From: an uncultured Dehalococcoidia bacterium
Lineage (GTDB): Bacteria > Chloroflexota > Dehalococcoidia > Lucifugimonadales > Australimonadaceae
NCBI GenBank assembly: GCA_964560025.1
Contig: CAZLKC010000001.1
Span: forward strand, 89,010 to 153,009
Reading direction: 5' to 3'
Length of the DNA: 64,000 bases
Shown: one piece after another, positions 31,379-50,221 of the stretch
How the letters are laid out: every line of letters begins with the position of its first letter
Numbering within the stretch: position 1 is the first letter of the stretch
Notes under the pieces: model-generated
What the model saw: the letters and a program-made list of their open reading frames with translations, nothing else
Databases searched by the model: none
What the model was told of the DNA's origin: nothing
Program-made: the position numbers and the translations under genes

Positions 31379-31405
31379 GGTTCCCGAGCGAGCTAGGAGA
31401 CCGCC

Positions 31406-31756
31406 GTGGCAACCATAGAAGAACGGGTGAGCCGTATGGGAGGCGCCTACGAGCACTTCGCCTCCAAAGCGGACGTGCAGGAGGTGAAGACCGAGCTCGC
31501 CATCTTCAAGAGCGAGGTGCTGGTGTCCTTCACAGAGGTGCGCCAGGCCATCAGCCTCCTCGTCGCCGAGGAGGCCGCGCTCAAGAGCGACGTGGCCGAG
31601 TTCAAGGCCGAAGTCAGGAGCGACATCGCCCAACTCAAGGCCGAGGTCGCCGAGATTAAGAACAGCGTCGCCACGCTCGTGAACGCTGTGTCCGCAATCC
31701 AGGAGCTCCTTTCCCGCCCGCGCCAGGCCGGGTTCCAGCCTCCCCAGTCCGGCTGA
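31406..31756 (+). CDS. Coiled-coil protein of unknown function (DUF1640-like heptad repeats)
   Basis: 116 aa, GTG start with AGGAG upstream. Repeated (S/A)D(V/I)A(E/Q)(F/L)KAEV segments. No TM or catalytic motif. Confidence 0.55.
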   Translation: MATIEERVSRMGGAYEHFASKADVQEVKTELAIFKSEVLVSFTEVRQAISLLVAEEAALKSDVAEFKAEVRSDIAQLKAEVAEIKNSVATLVNAVSAIQELLSRPRQAGFQPPQSG

Positions 31757-31801
31757 GGCGCGCGCGCGAGGCGCCCACCCACACTCCTCAGGAGGCCCCT
31801 T

Positions 31802-32689
31802 ATGCCCCAAACCATCTGGACTGCGCTCCTGGGCGCCGAGGTTCGGTTCGTGCAGGGCGCGAAGTACCGCACGCGCATCGTCGAGGCGGGGACGGAGCAC
31901 GACACGACGCTCGTCATGGCGCATGGCGGCGGCGGCCACCTCGAAACCTTCGCTTACAACGTTATGCCCCTCGCCGAGCACTTCCACGTCATCGGCATGG
32001 AGATGGTCTGCCACGGCCTCTCCAGCGTCCCCGACGTGGTGGGCGACTTCAACGCCCTGGTGTCGGAGCAGGTGCTCGACGTGATGGACGCGCTCGGCCT
32101 CGACAAGGTGTGGGTCCACGGCGAGGCGGGCGGCGGCTCCGGCATCACGCCGTTGGTGATGGAGCATCCGGAACGCCTGCACGGCGTCATCTTCGAATCG
32201 GGCATCGCCGTCAACCTTAAGGAGGGAACCTACGCGCCGCCTGCCCCGCCCGTCGGCGGCATGACGATGCGCGACCGCACGCTCCAACTGCTCGACAACC
32301 CGACGTGGGAGGGCATCCACGCGCGGTTGCTGATGGTGATGCACCGCGACCACCCCGAGCGCGTTACGGACGAACTGGTGGACGTACGCCTAGCCCACTA
32401 TTCCCGCCCTTCGACGAACGAGGGGCAGCGCAAGTACTACTCGCGCCCCAACGCGGCGGCGCACAACTACACCGAGGAGCAGATAGCGACCATCCGCCTC
32501 CCGGTGCTGGTGCTGTGGTGCGACGGCAACAGCGGCCTCGGCCCCGACGCGGGCGAGCGCGTGGCGAGCATCATCCCCAACGCCCAATTCATGCTGATGC
32601 CCGAGACCGGCTGGTGGGCGCACTGGGAGAAGCCCGGCCTCTTCAACGATGCCGTAACCCGCTTCATCAAAGGCGAGCGCGTAGCCTAG
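31802..32689 (+). CDS. Alpha/beta-fold hydrolase (meta-cleavage-product hydrolase-like)
   Basis: 295 aa with LVMAHGGGGH, an atypical nucleophile elbow VHGEAGGG, and a C-terminal ETGWWAHWEKP His region. Confidence 0.7.
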   Translation: MPQTIWTALLGAEVRFVQGAKYRTRIVEAGTEHDTTLVMAHGGGGHLETFAYNVMPLAEHFHVIGMEMVCHGLSSVPDVVGDFNALVSEQVLDVMDALGLDKVWVHGEAGGGSGITPLVMEHPERLHGVIFESGIAVNLKEGTYAPPAPPVGGMTMRDRTLQLLDNPTWEGIHARLLMVMHRDHPERVTDELVDVRLAHYSRPSTNEGQRKYYSRPNAAAHNYTEEQIATIRLPVLVLWCDGNSGLGPDAGERVASIIPNAQFMLMPETGWWAHWEKPGLFNDAVTRFIKGERVA

Positions 32690-43328: not shown

Positions 43329-44705
43329 CTACCCCGTCCCCAGCGCCGCCTTGAGCGCCGCTCCCAACGCCGCCCCCTGGCCCGGCAGCACCGTCCGCAG
43401 GTCGAGCAGCAGGCGGTCAGCCTCGATGCGCCCCAACACCGCTGGATCGCCCGTCCGCAGCCGCCGCGCCAGCCCCTCCGCGCCGCCGCGCGCCTCCTCT
43501 CCGCCGACGCTCACTAACCGCGTCGGCAGCGTATCGCCCGGCAGACTGCCGCCGCCAACCGTGGACAACCCCTCGACCACGCGCGCGTCGCCGCCCGCCG
43601 CCTCCGCCACTGTGCGCGCCCGCGTCTCCAACTCCTCCACGCCCGCCGCGATCATCCGCCACACCGGCAATTCGCGCTCCGCCTCCCCGCGCGCGTAGTG
43701 GAGCAACGTCGCGTGCAACGCCGCCAGCGTCATCTTGTCCGCCCGCAAAGGACGCGCCAGCGGGTGCCGCGCCAATCGCTCCACCAGCGCCGCCTTGCCC
43801 AACGCGACACCCGCCTGCGGCCCTCCCAGCAGCTTGTCGCCCGACACGAACACCAACCCCGCGCCCGCCGCTATGCTCTCCCGAGGCGTCCACTCGTGCA
43901 CCAACCCGTAGGCCGCCGTATCCAGCAACGCCCCGCTGCCCAGGTCGTGCAGCAGCGGCACGCCTTGCGCCTTGGCGACCGCCGCAACCTCCCCCAACGC
44001 CGCCTCGTGCGTGAACCCCACCACGCGGAAGTTCGAGCGGTGCACGACCAGCACAGCGGCGGTATCCTCGCCGATAGCCTCGTCGTAATCACGCGCGTAG
44101 GTGCGGTTCACCGTCCCCACCTCGACCATCCGCGCCCCGCTCTGCCGCAGCACGTCCGGAATGCGGAACCCGCCCCCTATCTCGCTCGCCTCTCCCCGCG
44201 CCACCACCACCTCCCTGCCCGCCCCCAACGCCGCCATCGCCAGCAGCACCGCCCCCGCGTTGTTGTTCACCACCATCGCGTCCTCCGCCCCCGTCAACCG
44301 GCGCAGCAGCGCCGCAACCGCCCGATGCCGCGAAGACCGCTTGCCCGACTCGAGGTCGAGCTCGAGGTCGGAGTACTCAGTCGCCGCCGCGGCCGCCGCC
44401 CGCGCGCTCGCGTCGGAAAGCGGCGCCCGCCCCAGGTTCGTGTGCAGGATCACGCCCGTCGCGTTGATGACCGGCGCAGGCCAAGCCCTCCGCTCCCGCG
44501 CCAACTGCCCCGCAGCCGCAGCCGCCACCTCCCCGGCGTCCGGCGCTCCCTCGCCCGCCGCCAGCGACGCGCGAGACGCCTCCAGCGCCTCCCGCACCGC
44601 CTCCACCACGACAGCGCGGTCATAGACCGCGAGCGTCTCCGCGAGCGCCTCTTCCGTCAGCACCCGATCGACGCTCGGCAACCTGCGATACGGATTCGCC
44701 GCCAC
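43329..44705 (-). CDS. selA: L-seryl-tRNA(Sec) selenium transferase
   Basis: 458 aa, GTG start. LPSVDRVL, VINATGVILHTNLGRAPL, EYSDLELDLESGKRSSR, MVVNNNAGAVLL, VVHRSNFRVVGF and the PLP-Lys context SGDKLLGGPQAG are all SelA signatures. Confidence 0.9.
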   Translation of the reverse strand: MAANPYRRLPSVDRVLTEEALAETLAVYDRAVVVEAVREALEASRASLAAGEGAPDAGEVAAAAAGQLARERRAWPAPVINATGVILHTNLGRAPLSDASARAAAAAATEYSDLELDLESGKRSSRHRAVAALLRRLTGAEDAMVVNNNAGAVLLAMAALGAGREVVVARGEASEIGGGFRIPDVLRQSGARMVEVGTVNRTYARDYDEAIGEDTAAVLVVHRSNFRVVGFTHEAALGEVAAVAKAQGVPLLHDLGSGALLDTAAYGLVHEWTPRESIAAGAGLVFVSGDKLLGGPQAGVALGKAALVERLARHPLARPLRADKMTLAALHATLLHYARGEAERELPVWRMIAAGVEELETRARTVAEAAGGDARVVEGLSTVGGGSLPGDTLPTRLVSVGGEEARGGAEGLARRLRTGDPAVLGRIEADRLLLDLRTVLPGQGAALGAALKAALGTG

Positions 44706-44775: not shown

Positions 44776-45147
44776 AGGGTGTCCTAAGAAGGGGCAGGGT
44801 GCGCTAATCGGTATAGGCGGATATTGGTCATCGCTAGGTAGCCCCACGCCTCCGTCGTTTGCGGCAGTTCCTCGTAGTCCCTGCTCAAACGGCGGTAGCG
44901 TCCTAGCCACGCGAACGTCCGCTCGACCACCCATCGGTGCGCAGGACGTACAAGGTGGCGTTGACCACCTCGCGCCGGGGGTAGATGATGCGGCACCCTA
45001 TGGGGGAAGGCGCAGGCAGCAGGGGTTCGAGCAGGCTCCATTCGGCATCGGTGAGGTCGCTGAGGTAGGCTTATCTGTCCATAGACAGGGCTTACGCCAA
45101 TTGCCCTCCCGCCCCTAGCGGTTTCGCTTCCCATTTTAGACATCCTC
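44775..45147 (-). mobile_element. Internally deleted IS5-family insertion sequence relic (~373 bp) with imperfect terminal inverted repeats
   Basis: Ends GAGGGTGTCCTAAGAAGGGG (44775-44794) versus the reverse complement of 45129-45147, GAGGATGTCTAAAATGGGA. Inside are N- and C-terminal transposase remnants only. Confidence 0.7.
44784..45058 (-). pseudogene. IS5-family (DDE) transposase remnant: N-terminal ~45 codons fused out of frame to C-terminal ~50 codons
   Basis: One frame reads [41 protein letters not shown] (the DUF4096-type N-terminus). Another reads [46 protein letters not shown] (the conserved IS5 C-terminus). The entire catalytic core is missing. Confidence 0.75.
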
Positions 45148-45771: not shown

Positions 45772-45800
45772 CCGTTCGCCTTGAGTGAACTCGAAGGGCG
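45772..45800. repeat. Degenerate copy C of the palindromic repeat (CCGTTCGCCTTGAGTGAACTCGAAGGGCG)
   Basis: Matches copy B at most positions, with 3 substitutions. Confidence 0.6.
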
Positions 45801-45850
45801 CCCCTCTGATACCCTCGCCCCGCTACACCTCTACCTCCAGGAGCGCCTTT

Positions 45851-46402
45851 ATGCCCCGCCTGCCCGAAATCACCCAGCGCGACCAGGTGGACGACGCCGC
45901 CAAGCCCCACTTCGACTCCATCATCGCCAGCAGAGGGCGCATCGGCGCCCCTTACCAATACCTGCTGCACTCGCCCGACCAGGCCGCCCGCGTCGCCCAC
46001 ACCATCGGCTTCGCCCGCTTCGATGCCACGCTCGACAGGCGCGTCTCCGAGATCGCCATCTGCGCCGTCGCCCGCGAACTCGACTGCCTCTACGAGTGGG
46101 CCGCCCACGAAGACGACGCCCGCGCCGCCGGGGTTGCCGAGCAGACCATCCAAGCCATCAAGCGCGGAAGCGCACCCGACGGGATTCCCGAAGAGGACGC
46201 CTCCATCGTCCGCTACGTCCAAGCCCTCTTGCGCCCGCCCCACCGCGTCGCAGACGCCGCATTCGACGCCCTCCGCCAGCGTCTAGGCGACCGCCACATG
46301 GCCGAACTCACCGCGGTCATCGGCAGCTACGCCATGCTCGCCTGCTGCCTCAACGCCTTCGACGTGCTCACGCCCGAGGGGCGCCCCATCCTCCCTGTCT
46401 AA
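45851..46402 (+). CDS. Carboxymuconolactone decarboxylase (CMD/AhpD-like) family protein
   Basis: Start MPRLPEITQRD inside track ORF 45785..46402 (whose first 22 codons run through repeat copy C). Two-repeat CMD pattern with EIAICAVARELDCLYEWAAH. Confidence 0.75.
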   Translation: MPRLPEITQRDQVDDAAKPHFDSIIASRGRIGAPYQYLLHSPDQAARVAHTIGFARFDATLDRRVSEIAICAVARELDCLYEWAAHEDDARAAGVAEQTIQAIKRGSAPDGIPEEDASIVRYVQALLRPPHRVADAAFDALRQRLGDRHMAELTAVIGSYAMLACCLNAFDVLTPEGRPILPV

Positions 46403-47457
46403 CCCACTGCGCGCGCCAGCGCCGGGCCGATGACCTCCCCGAACGCGCGCCGCTCCTCCTCCGGCCACTGGAACGACAGGTTCGCGTACATATAGACGCG
46501 TTCAACGCCCGACGCTTGCAACTCCAGGTAGCGCCCCGCCACGTAGTCCGGGTCGCCCAGCACCGCCATCGTGTCGCCCGCCGCCGCTTGCAATTCCGGC
46601 GGTATCGCCGCGTCCGCTATCTCCTCTGCCGCCACCCAGTCGTAGGGATGGCTCGCCGACGGCGCCAACCGCTGCATCGCCGCCCACCCCTCGCGCAGCC
46701 GCTCCGCGATGGGCGCCAGGTCGTACTCGACTCCGCGCGCCGCGAGCCACTCCTGCGCGTCCGGCCGCACCAGGTTCGGCAGCAGCTTGGGCGCGTGCGT
46801 GCGGTGTGCGAGGCGGCGCGTCTCGCGGATCATCGTCCGCACCTCTAGAACCAACTCCACCTCGGCGGGATCGCGCCCCGCCCTGGCCGCTCCGTCCGCC
46901 ACCCACTGCCTCGCCTGCGCCACCGACGCGGGGTCGGGCGACACGGCCAGCAGCGCGCCGTCGCACAGTTCGCCCGCGATGCCGAGCACCTTCGGGCCGC
47001 GGCCCGCAAGGAACACGGGCGGAGGCGGCCCATCGCTATGGTGCAGACGCACGTGCGGGTCGCCCCATATCCCCCACTCCCCCGCCATCGCCCGCTTAAT
47101 CTCCGAGACCGCCTGCCGCGTCTCCCGCAGCGTCAGCGCCGCCCGCCCGATGGTGGACGCCGCCGCGTCGCCGCGCCCGAGCCACACCTCGAACCGCCCC
47201 GGCCCCGCCTCCTGTGCCGTCCGCGCGGCGGACGCGATGACCGACGAGTGCCTCGGCCCCGGACAGGTGAGCGCCGGATGCACGACCAGCGCGTCCGTCG
47301 CCGCCAGCGCGTGCGACGACACGACGTAGGTGTCGCGGAAGTACAACTGCGAGTCGTTGAAACCGCAGGCGTAGAACCCTGCCTCTTCGCACTTGCGCGC
47401 GAACTCCGCCATCTCCCGCACCGGATGGCTCGGCGGCGTCCGCAGGTCTACCTTCAT
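46399..47457 (-). CDS. LLM-class F420/flavin-dependent oxidoreductase
   Basis: Start MKVDLRTPPSHP with GAGGAGG 5 nt upstream; the track ORF extends to 47496. Has FYACGFNDSQ and GRFEVWLGRGD luciferase-like patterns. Confidence 0.8.
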   Translation of the reverse strand: MKVDLRTPPSHPVREMAEFARKCEEAGFYACGFNDSQLYFRDTYVVSSHALAATDALVVHPALTCPGPRHSSVIASAARTAQEAGPGRFEVWLGRGDAAASTIGRAALTLRETRQAVSEIKRAMAGEWGIWGDPHVRLHHSDGPPPPVFLAGRGPKVLGIAGELCDGALLAVSPDPASVAQARQWVADGAARAGRDPAEVELVLEVRTMIRETRRLAHRTHAPKLLPNLVRPDAQEWLAARGVEYDLAPIAERLREGWAAMQRLAPSASHPYDWVAAEEIADAAIPPELQAAAGDTMAVLGDPDYVAGRYLELQASGVERVYMYANLSFQWPEEERRAFGEVIGPALARAVG

Positions 47458-47550
47458 CGCCCCTCCTCGCGCCCTATCGGCCCGGCTGCGCAGCATTCTA
47501 GCGGGCGCCTGCTATCCTGCGCCCACCCCACCCGGAGACGCCCCCGCGCT

Positions 47551-48747
47551 ATGACCACCACCGACGAGATCATCGCCGACTACCTCGACGAGGAGTACAT
47601 CATCGACACGCTGGTCGCGCTCCTCCGCACGCCGACCGACGTGCCGATGGGCGTCGACACGCTCATGGCGCCCGACGACCCGAAACTCGTCCACTTCGTC
47701 CAGGAGGTCATCCGCCCCGAACTGCTCGCCATCGGCGCCTACGGCGTCATCGAGGCGCCCCTCAACCAACTGGTCGTCCGCATGGGCGAGGGCGAATCCG
47801 ACCGCGCCCTCCTCGTTATGGCCTACACCCCCAGCCAGCACTCCAACCTGATGAGCGACCCCTTCGGCGGGCGCGTGGCGATGGGCACGGCGTTCGGCTT
47901 CGACGAACCCTGCGCTTTCGGCCAGGGTGCCACACAGAACAAGTCCCACTTCGCCGCTATGCTCGGCGTGCTGAAGATGCTCGTCGAATCGGGCGCGCCA
48001 CTGCGCGGCGCCCTCTACTTCGGCGTCAACAACGAGGGGCGCTCCAGCCACGCCTGCTCCGACGCCATCATCGGCGCGCTCCCGTCCAAGCCGACGCTCG
48101 GCGTGGTGCTCCAGCGCACCAACTTCCGCCTCCAACTCGGCAACCGCGGGCGCGTCGACGTCTACGTAACGGTCAAGGGCAAGGCATCCCACTCCAGCCG
48201 CCCCGACCTGGGCCTCAACGCCATTATGGGCGCCAACGAGGCCGTTAACCGCATCGCCAAGATGACCTTCTCCAAGACCCACCCCAAACTAGGCGGCCTC
48301 CACGCCGTGCCCTACCAAATCTCCTACGCGCCGCTAGCCCCGCACACGCTGCCGGACACCGCGCGCATCGTCGTCGACCGCCGCCTCCTCCCCGGCGACG
48401 ACATCGACGCGGCTGTGGACGAGGTGCGCGCCGCCGTAGGCGACCTCAGCCCGTTCGAGGTTACGGTGGAGCGCGGCGTCCATATGCTGCCCGCCCTCGT
48501 GGAGCCGGACGACCCCAACGTCCAGGCCATCATCGCCGCCCACGCGAGCGTCTTCGGCCAAGAGCCGGAGCACTACTACCACCCCGGCTCCTACGACGCA
48601 GGCGGCCCCAACGCCCACGGCATACCCACCGTCCAGTACGGAACCAACGGCGCCAACACCCTCCTAGGCGAGGACTTCGTCCCCCTATCGAGCGTCGTCA
48701 ACGAAGCCCGCGTCCTAGCAACGCTCGCGCTCGACTACCTGGCGTAG
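47551..48747 (+). CDS. M20-family metallopeptidase/deacylase (ArgE/DapE-like)
   Basis: Start MTTTDEIIADYLDEEY inside track ORF 47038..48747. GRVDVYVTVKGKASHSSRPDLGLNAI is the typical M20 dimerisation-domain motif. Confidence 0.8.
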   Translation: MTTTDEIIADYLDEEYIIDTLVALLRTPTDVPMGVDTLMAPDDPKLVHFVQEVIRPELLAIGAYGVIEAPLNQLVVRMGEGESDRALLVMAYTPSQHSNLMSDPFGGRVAMGTAFGFDEPCAFGQGATQNKSHFAAMLGVLKMLVESGAPLRGALYFGVNNEGRSSHACSDAIIGALPSKPTLGVVLQRTNFRLQLGNRGRVDVYVTVKGKASHSSRPDLGLNAIMGANEAVNRIAKMTFSKTHPKLGGLHAVPYQISYAPLAPHTLPDTARIVVDRRLLPGDDIDAAVDEVRAAVGDLSPFEVTVERGVHMLPALVEPDDPNVQAIIAAHASVFGQEPEHYYHPGSYDAGGPNAHGIPTVQYGTNGANTLLGEDFVPLSSVVNEARVLATLALDYLA

Positions 48748-49513: not shown

Positions 49514-49600
49514 GCCGAGGTGGCGGAATGGTAGACGCGGCGGACTTAAAATCCGCTGTCCCTGTGGGACGTGTGGGTTCGAAACCCTCCCTCGGCACCA
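49514..49600 (+). tRNA. tRNA-Leu (anticodon TAA), long variable arm, CCA encoded
   Basis: GCCGAGGTGGCGGAATGGTAGACGCGGCGGACTTAAAATCCGCTGTCCCTGTGGGACGTGTGGGTTCGAAACCCTCCCTCGGCACCA. Acceptor GCCGAGG/CCTCGGC, anticodon loop CTTAAAA. Confidence 0.9.
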
Positions 49601-49624
49601 ACACCGCCCGCAAGGAGGCGCGCT

Positions 49625-50221
49625 ATGGCCGTTGCGTGGGTCAAGACCGTCGAGGAGTCGGAGGCGGCAGGCGAGCTCGCCGAACTCTACGAGGAGGCGC
49701 GCCAACGGCTGGGCCGCGTCCCCCCGATGATCAAGGCGCTCAGCCTCCGCCCCAAGGTGGCCGCCGCCAAGGAGAACCTGCGGCGCAGCCTCATCGGTGA
49801 CGCGTCCTCCCTTGGCGCACGCCGCGCCGACATGATCAGCGTCGTCGTGTCGGGCCTCAACCGCTGCCGCTTCTGAGGCGCCGCCCACGCCGGATCGTTG
49901 GTCCGGCGCGGCGACGCCGACGAGGAATTCTCCGTCGCCCTCTACAACGACTGGCGCAGCGCCGACCTCGCCCCCGAGGAGCGCGTGATGCTCGCCTACG
50001 TGGAGAAACTCACCTTCCATCCCGCGATGACCACGGCGGACGACCTGCAAGTGCTGCGCGACGCCGGCTTCACCGACGAGCAGATAACCGACGTCGTGAT
50101 GCTGACCGGCTACCGCGCTATGCTCAACCGCCTCCACGACGGCCTCGGCCTCACCCTCGACGACCACGTGGAGCGCTCCGGCCATGCCTTCGTCGACCGC
50201 TTCCCCGGCGTGGCGGGCTAG
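49625..50221 (+). CDS. AhpD-like/CMD 'peroxidase-related' protein read through an in-frame TGA (putative selenocysteine, CxxU motif)
   Basis: Track ORFs 49571..49876 and 49898..50221 are in the same frame, separated only by TGA (49874-76) and 7 sense codons. The joined sequence reads ...VVVSGLNRCRF-U-GAAHAGSL..., matching the S-x2-N-x-C-x-(Y/F)-C-x3-H core of this family. AAGGAGG lies 7 nt before the ATG at 49625; the earlier Met at 49571 lies inside the tRNA. Confidence 0.7.
49879..49913 (+). promoter_or_regulatory. SECIS-like stem-loop immediately 3' of the in-frame TGA
   Basis: CGCCG(49879-83)-CCCA bulge-CGCCGGA(49888-94)-loop TCGTTGG-TCCGGCG(49902-08)-CGGCG(49909-13), giving 12 Watson-Crick pairs. 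The G/U-containing apical loop lies 21-27 nt after the U of UGA. Confidence 0.55.

Follow-up and report, generated by a model that had tools for sequence, protein, structure and literature searches.

An in-frame TGA in an AhpD-like gene of an uncultured Chloroflexota bacterium very probably encodes selenocysteine

Two open reading frames (ORFs) on the forward strand of a 64,000-nucleotide stretch of DNA from an uncultured Chloroflexota bacterium, referred to here as the window, raise the question of whether they represent two genes or one. The ORFs, 49571..49876 and 49898..50221, lie in one frame at an offset of 327 nt (109 codons) and are separated only by a TGA (49874-76) and seven sense codons (49877-49897). 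An earlier inspection of the letters alone (hereafter the sequence-only reading) had described this arrangement and had taken the TGA for a selenocysteine (Sec) codon within a 198-residue protein of the AhpD/CMD family. Both the arrangement and the length were reproduced, and translation from ATG 49625 to TAG 50219-21 with the TGA as a residue gave 198 amino acids, ...SGLNRCRF-U-GAAHAGSLVRRGD... As judged by comparison with relatives, the two ORFs are very probably a single gene in which TGA 49874-76 encodes Sec. The coordinates of all features are given in Table 1.

The upstream ORF opens with GTG 49571, which was rejected as the start codon because it falls within a tRNA-Leu(taa) gene (49514-49600). 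The start was assigned to ATG 49625, which is preceded by a Shine-Dalgarno sequence. The closest genome match, locus L004 in the Chloroflexota MAG RHO1_bin_38 (JAPPFU01; 91% identity, TGA kept), has the same arrangement as the window, with tRNA-Leu(taa) at 384-470, a gap of 24 nt and the AhpD-like gene from 495.

Table 1. Features of the AhpD-like locus and of selA in the window
Feature	Coordinates	Strand	Evidence or remark
selA (L-seryl-tRNA(Sec) selenium transferase)	43329..44705	-	TIGR00474, 512.5 bits (cutoff 267.9), profile positions 1-454 of 455
tRNA-Leu(taa)	49514..49600	+	ARAGORN and Rfam; directly upstream, marks the 5' limit of the gene
Shine-Dalgarno sequence AAGGAGG	49612..49618	+	read from the sequence; 6 nt 5' of ATG 49625
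Predicted AhpD-like (TIGR01926) selenoprotein CDS	49625..50221	+	198 codons including the Sec codon; stop TAG 50219-21
In-frame TGA, predicted Sec residue 84	49874..49876	+	motif C81-R-F-U84-G-A-A-H88
Putative SECIS, whole hairpin	49877..49918	+	RNA folding; 17 bp in three helices, begins directly after the TGA
Putative SECIS, outer helix	49877-80 / 49915-18	+	RNA folding
Putative SECIS, middle helix	49882-85 / 49910-13	+	RNA folding
Putative SECIS, upper helix, 9 bp	49888-96 / 49900-08	+	RNA folding
Putative SECIS, apical loop GUU	49897-99	+	RNA folding
Conserved core of the putative SECIS (upper 9-bp stem and GUU loop)	49888..49908	+	begins 11 nt after the TGA

The read-through protein was compared with profile libraries and with solved structures. 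It matched the NCBIfam model TIGR01926 ('peroxidase-related enzyme') with 114.9 bits at a curated cutoff of 81.8, and the alignment paired residues 4-177 with profile positions 1-174 of 178 and thus ran across the TGA. The Pfam CMD model PF02627 and TIGR00778 matched as well, and the placement in the peroxidase-related branch of the AhpD/CMD family, as proposed from the letters, is supported. Residues 11-177 also aligned with the PDB entries 6k40 (deposited as AhpD), 2oyo, 3c1l and 2pfx (peroxidase-related) at E values of 1e-20 to 1e-25, the best being 7.9e-25 for 6k40_A and 1.2e-24 for 2oyo_A. In these structures, the physiological substrates of which are mostly uncharacterised, the segment VVVSGLNRC-x-[YF]-C-xx-H is nearly identical to VVVSGLNRCRF-U-GAAH of the window; the alignments paired VVVSGLNRC-x-Y-C-xx-H with it, so that the CxxC pair falls on C81/U84, and all four structures have Cys at the U position. 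The part of the protein encoded 3' of the TGA corresponds by homology to the C-terminal half of TIGR01926 family members and of the solved AhpD-like structures. As fold and profile are continuous across the TGA, either fragment alone would split the active site.

The protein has the active-site residues D69, C81, U84 and H88, the first two of which are twelve positions apart. C81, H88 and D69 were invariant in the alignment of close homologues, while more distant members have E at the acidic position. Two NCBIfam models describe distantly related CMD/AhpD-domain selenoproteins with a CxxU motif, and the window protein belongs to neither: it scored 40.1 bits against NF041238 (AhpD_rel_CFYUT; curated cutoff 175) and 22 bits against NF053654 (YciW-related (seleno)protein; cutoff 310).

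The residue that relatives carry at the U column was determined by protein and genome searches. The protein search yielded nine full-length homologues with 47-66% identity, all nine of which had Cys at this column in the motif C-[RHE]-[FY]-C, as the sequence-only reading had anticipated for Cys-containing relatives. The same search also returned two 'proteins' of 110-113 amino acids that start just 3' of the U column, and one match that ends exactly at ...CRF. The contigs of these shortened matches contain the same in-frame TGA, at which gene callers had split the gene into 85+113 and 81+110 amino acids. None of the homologues therefore truly terminates at this position, and the predicted fragmentation of the gene by standard callers was encountered in related contigs.

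A genome scan with one genome per species gave 375 relatives. The best 80 of these were combined with the loci L001-L003 and the window itself into a set of 84 loci. In this set, which thus includes the best 80 of 375 relatives, the codon at the U column was TGA in 75 loci, TGC in eight and TGT in one, and neither TAA nor TAG occurred in any of the 84. Among the best 80 of the 375 relatives alone, TGA was found in 71. The MAGs with a TGA locus were labelled as Chloroflexota, Deltaproteobacteria, Binatia, Acidobacteriota, Acidimicrobiia, SAR324 and others. The TGA was also kept in all four close relatives of the window (L001-L004), which are 70-91% identical to it. A metagenome scan for further close relatives gave only five matches with 27-28% identity, which were of no use for analysing covariation within the clade. 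One of the four close relatives, the 643-bp metagenome contig L003 (1-643), is chimeric: an AT-rich asparagine synthase-like sequence continues in frame into a GC-rich AhpD-like segment (about 416-590) with the TGA and the hairpin described below, after which AT-rich sequence resumes. This chimera is probably an assembly artefact.

Selection on the two parts of the gene was estimated by comparing the window with L004, L001 and L002. At a synonymous divergence (dS) of 0.3-1.1 the TGA was kept in every pair, and dN/dS was 0.06-0.29 upstream and 0.17-0.38 downstream of it. The sequence 3' of the TGA is under purifying selection and is translated. A genome-wide reassignment of TGA was considered and rejected. 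The stops of the GC3-supported ORFs in the window were TAG in 32 cases, TGA in 10 (including the AhpD-like gene) and TAA in six, so that TGA is the stop of nine further genes, and internal TGA codons are absent from long genes, among them selA and the gene for a 977-aa transglutaminase-like protein. TAG is the commonest stop in the window (1-64000) despite a GC content of 69.7%, at which a dominance of TGA would normally be expected.

A hairpin was present at the place expected for a bacterial SECIS element. The sequence-only reading had correctly located a hairpin behind the TGA but had given it 12 bp and a start 3 nt after the TGA, neither of which agrees with the folded structure (Table 1). 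In a dinucleotide shuffle of the hairpin region the stability was not significant (z = -1.09). This test is uninformative at about 70% GC, and synonymous-codon resampling was therefore used, with codons drawn from the window's own usage and the peptide GAAHAGSLVRRGDAD kept. The minimum free energy of the hairpin was -31.5 kcal/mol, compared with a mean of -19.7 (sd 3.2) for the recodings, and none of 5000 recodings was as stable. The stem contains the rare codons GGA, GCC and TTG, which account for 10%, 15% and 20% of their respective synonymous sets. The core CACGCCGGATCGTTGGTCCGGCG was preserved at third codon positions in L001-L004; the whole element is identical in L004 and nearly identical in L001-L003, and L003 shows a compensatory change from G-C to U-A in the middle stem.

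The hairpin was then compared across the larger set. Of the 75 TGA loci (from the set with the best 80 of 375 relatives), 96% had a hairpin with 5 or more uninterrupted base pairs beginning 11-15 nt 3' of the UGA; the rate was 16.6% when other codon positions in these genes were taken as the reference point, and among the Cys loci it was two of nine. The distance from the UGA to its 5' arm was exactly 11 nt in 60 of the 74 TGA loci with a detected hairpin, and the apical loops of the TGA loci were mostly GUU, GUC or CGGGCU. With a single fixed register on the 75 sequences, 43 compensatory cells were counted, a number reached by 0 of 500 shuffles; the covariation score and the compensatory count exceeded those of all 500 shuffles and of all slid registers. 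The pairs of the hairpin thus covary. Neither the Rfam gathering search of the whole window nor a search of 49840-49960 at a permissive E value gave a SECIS-like or other credible RNA family.

The DNA of the Cys homologues P0007 and P0002 was also examined for the hairpin. The closest Cys homologues examined already contain the outer 6 bp of the upper stem, CGCCGG...CCGGCG, because the conserved peptide A-G-x-L-V-R-R forms it when written in GC-rich codons. The stem alone is therefore weaker evidence than it appears. In the prototype, the SECIS of E. coli fdhF, the upper part of the minimal element begins 11 nt after the UGA and has a GU loop. Like the hairpin of the window, it is a stem-loop within the coding sequence whose apical loop exposes G and U, but the primary sequences differ and the upper stem in the window lacks the bulged U. 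The SECIS elements of AhpD-like selenoproteins are described as stem-loops that follow the UGA and end in a small, G-containing apical loop (PMC1088965), a description that the hairpin of the window fits.

Of the genes for Sec insertion only selA was found in the 64-kb window. It lies 4.9 kb upstream of the AhpD-like gene and matches its family model over the full length, in agreement with the distance of about 5 kb noted earlier. No tRNA-Sec was found by ARAGORN in the 64-kb window, and its six-frame translation contained neither the SelB G1 motif nor the SelD TDFF motif; selB, selC and selD are presumed to lie elsewhere in the genome. ARAGORN also reported a tRNA-Arg(gcg) of 85 nt at 43698-43782 (-), wholly within selA and without support from the Rfam tRNA model, which is most likely a false positive.

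Other explanations of the TGA were weighed against these data. It might have arisen by mutation or sequencing error from the Cys codon TGC or TGT, from either of which it differs by one substitution, and the downstream ORF would then be the remnant of a pseudogene; the presence of Cys in the closest full-length relatives in the protein database points in the same direction. Yet four related contigs, independent of one another and 70-91% identical, share this TGA, and so do 71 loci among the 80 from the genome scan (the best 80 of 375), while TAA and TAG are absent from the column. Together with the dN/dS of 0.17-0.38 downstream of the TGA and a hairpin maintained by conservation at synonymous sites, this makes a decayed or misread gene extremely improbable, and conservation effectively refutes it. 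If the TGA were a true stop, the products would be an N-terminal protein of 83 residues and, optionally, a separate protein of 107 residues starting at TTG 49898. Gene callers give exactly such a split in related contigs (85+113 and 81+110 amino acids), and under scarce selenium Sec insertion should face competition from termination at the UGA. However, the AhpD-like fold and the TIGR01926 profile run across the TGA, and a stop would cut the motif C-x-x-[U]-x3-H. The downstream starts that were called vary between loci, the TTG of the window falls within the hairpin loop and is not preceded by a Shine-Dalgarno sequence, and among the 84 loci (including the best 80 of 375) no homologue begins or ends at this column with a non-TGA codon. 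We consider a true stop highly improbable.

Some uncultured bacteria are known to possess unusual tRNAs that resemble tRNA(Sec), and the UGA might be recoded to a residue other than Sec, either to Cys through such a tRNA ('recoding with Cys') or to Trp through near-cognate read-through. That tRNA-Sec, selB and selD were not found in the 64-kb window would agree with this. It is nevertheless very unlikely, as a full-length canonical selA, the only role of which is to make Sec-tRNA(Sec), lies 4.9 kb away, and the position of the hairpin and its small G-containing loop are those of ordinary bacterial SECIS elements (PMC1088965). Moreover, TGA is an ordinary stop for other genes of the window.

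With Sec as the preferred reading of the UGA, the product would be a 198-residue AhpD-like thiol/selenol oxidoreductase of the TIGR01926/COG2128 'peroxidase-related enzyme' family. By the standard bacterial Sec pathway the mRNA hairpin 49877-49918 would act as a SECIS and recruit SelB.GTP.Sec-tRNA(Sec) at UGA 49874-76, so that the ribosome would insert Sec rather than terminate; the Sec-tRNA(Sec) would be made by the SelA encoded 4.9 kb away. Selenium would in this manner be incorporated at residue 84.

[quoted passage not shown] The window protein has the same acid-x11-C-x-x-C/U-x3-H spacing and the same all-helical CMD/AhpD core domain, but it belongs to a single-domain family of about 195 residues (TIGR01926) and is not a classic AhpD; it has a predicted Sec in place of Cys133, Asp in place of Glu at the relay position, and no adjacent ahpC. 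The TGA had been assigned to the resolving Cys of the CxxC pair. It does fall on the second Cys column, but U84 aligns with the attacking Cys133, and Sec84 would by analogy be the attacking residue, since it is the second Cys of M. tuberculosis AhpD that attacks AhpC. An exposed selenolate at position 84 might thus act as the nucleophile on an oxidised partner, which could be a peroxiredoxin or a hydroperoxide; resolution of the intermediate, as a selenenylsulfide, would fall to C81. M. tuberculosis AhpD is the reductant of the peroxiredoxin AhpC, and a genetic coupling to AhpC is absent from 39-56 kb of the window, where no peroxiredoxin or AhpC gene occurs among the annotated neighbours. As such a gene is not nearby, the biochemical role is proposed by analogy.

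AhpD-like proteins with a CxxU motif are not new, as had been acknowledged when the locus was first read. The family (COG2128) was reported in 2005 as a new selenoprotein family with 27 sequences from the Sargasso Sea metagenome (PMC1088965). 'AhpD-like 1' was later the fourth most abundant selenoprotein family in GOS, with 299 Sec and 902 Cys forms (PMC2398784), and a 2026 review lists the AhpD-like family with the CxxU motif under TIGR01926 (PMC13188914). The window gene shares with this family the same profile, the CxxU motif with the predicted Sec on the second Cys, a putative SECIS just downstream with a small G-containing loop, and a mixture of Sec and Cys forms among close relatives; there is no essential difference. 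In the sub-clade formed by the window, L004, L001 and L002 the upper stem is longer (9 bp) than in most family members and the loop lies 3 nt further 3'. The gene is a further member of a family catalogued since 2005 and conceptually nothing new. AhpD-like CxxU proteins rank with the most abundant bacterial selenoproteins known, and the main value of the result lies in the correct annotation: the two fragments given by gene callers are meaningless, and splitting the gene would hide a predicted redox-active selenoenzyme and understate the selenium dependence of this uncultured Chloroflexota lineage.

The history of Sec in this clade was examined with a bootstrapped neighbour-joining (NJ) tree. 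The window, L004, L001 and L002, all with the Sec codon, grouped at 100% and were nested at 98% within a branch whose other 16 members all have Cys. Monophyly of the Cys forms to the exclusion of the Sec clade was obtained in only 4% of the replicates, and the more distant relatives in the tree almost all have Sec. We tentatively suggest that Sec in the Chloroflexota clade might represent a re-conversion from Cys, Sec having been lost and regained, although the odds are somewhat against it. Several independent losses of Sec to Cys, with fossil SECIS elements in the Cys genes, are equally compatible with the data; the tree is distance-based and does not decide between a regain and multiple losses. 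A re-conversion, if true, would offer a concrete example of a SECIS that arose from a hairpin already formed by the coding sequence, and a Sec clade among Cys forms could serve as a test case for the interconversion of Cys and Sec and for the origin of SECIS elements.

The surroundings of the gene were inspected in the window and in the other loci. Annotated neighbours in the window are genes for a DUF1989 protein, an M20 peptidase, an F420-dependent LLM oxidoreductase and a second CMD-family paralogue, and further for a transglutaminase-like membrane protein and a MoxR ATPase. The CMD-family (PF02627) paralogue, 45785-46402 (+), lies between selA and the LLM oxidoreductase gene; its motif, ELDCLYEWAAH, contains one Cys and no CxxC pair, and the gene lacks an in-frame TGA. 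It represents another branch of the family and does not encode a selenoprotein. The best NCBIfam match of the M20 peptidase, 46849-48747 (+), was YgeY, a 'selenium metabolism-linked hydrolase', with 85 bits at a cutoff of 321. It is thus not a member of the YgeY family, and its position between selA and the predicted selenoprotein gene is a curiosity. In the stretch of about 1 kb between selA and the CMD paralogue a short ORF, 44784-45143 (-), was the only gene evident; it may represent the C-terminal remnant of a DDE transposase of the IS5 type, which its end resembles. A second selenoprotein was considered at another pair of same-frame ORFs, 31397..31756 and 31757..32689, and was rejected, as these are two ordinary genes encoding a coiled-coil protein and an alpha/beta-hydrolase-like protein with its own start.

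Clustering of the ORFs within 3.5 kb in 75 loci revealed no recurrent partner except a second CMD-domain gene in nine of them; the largest neighbour cluster in the 75 loci consisted of spurious GC-rich ORFs. In these nine loci (L058, 6642-7097, and eight others, from MAGs labelled Binatia and 'delta proteobacterium') the second gene, of about 150 aa with the motif GCLRCEKF, lies directly downstream of the AhpD-like gene, a pairing that recalls the TIGR04029/TIGR04030 gene pairs. On L084, the contig of the Cys homologue P0007, a GRDB (PF07355) call of 134 aa (114-518) is followed by an ORF of 255 aa. The two may be parts of one glycine/betaine reductase selenoprotein B gene interrupted by its own TGA, and if so, this organism would use Sec although its AhpD-like protein has Cys.
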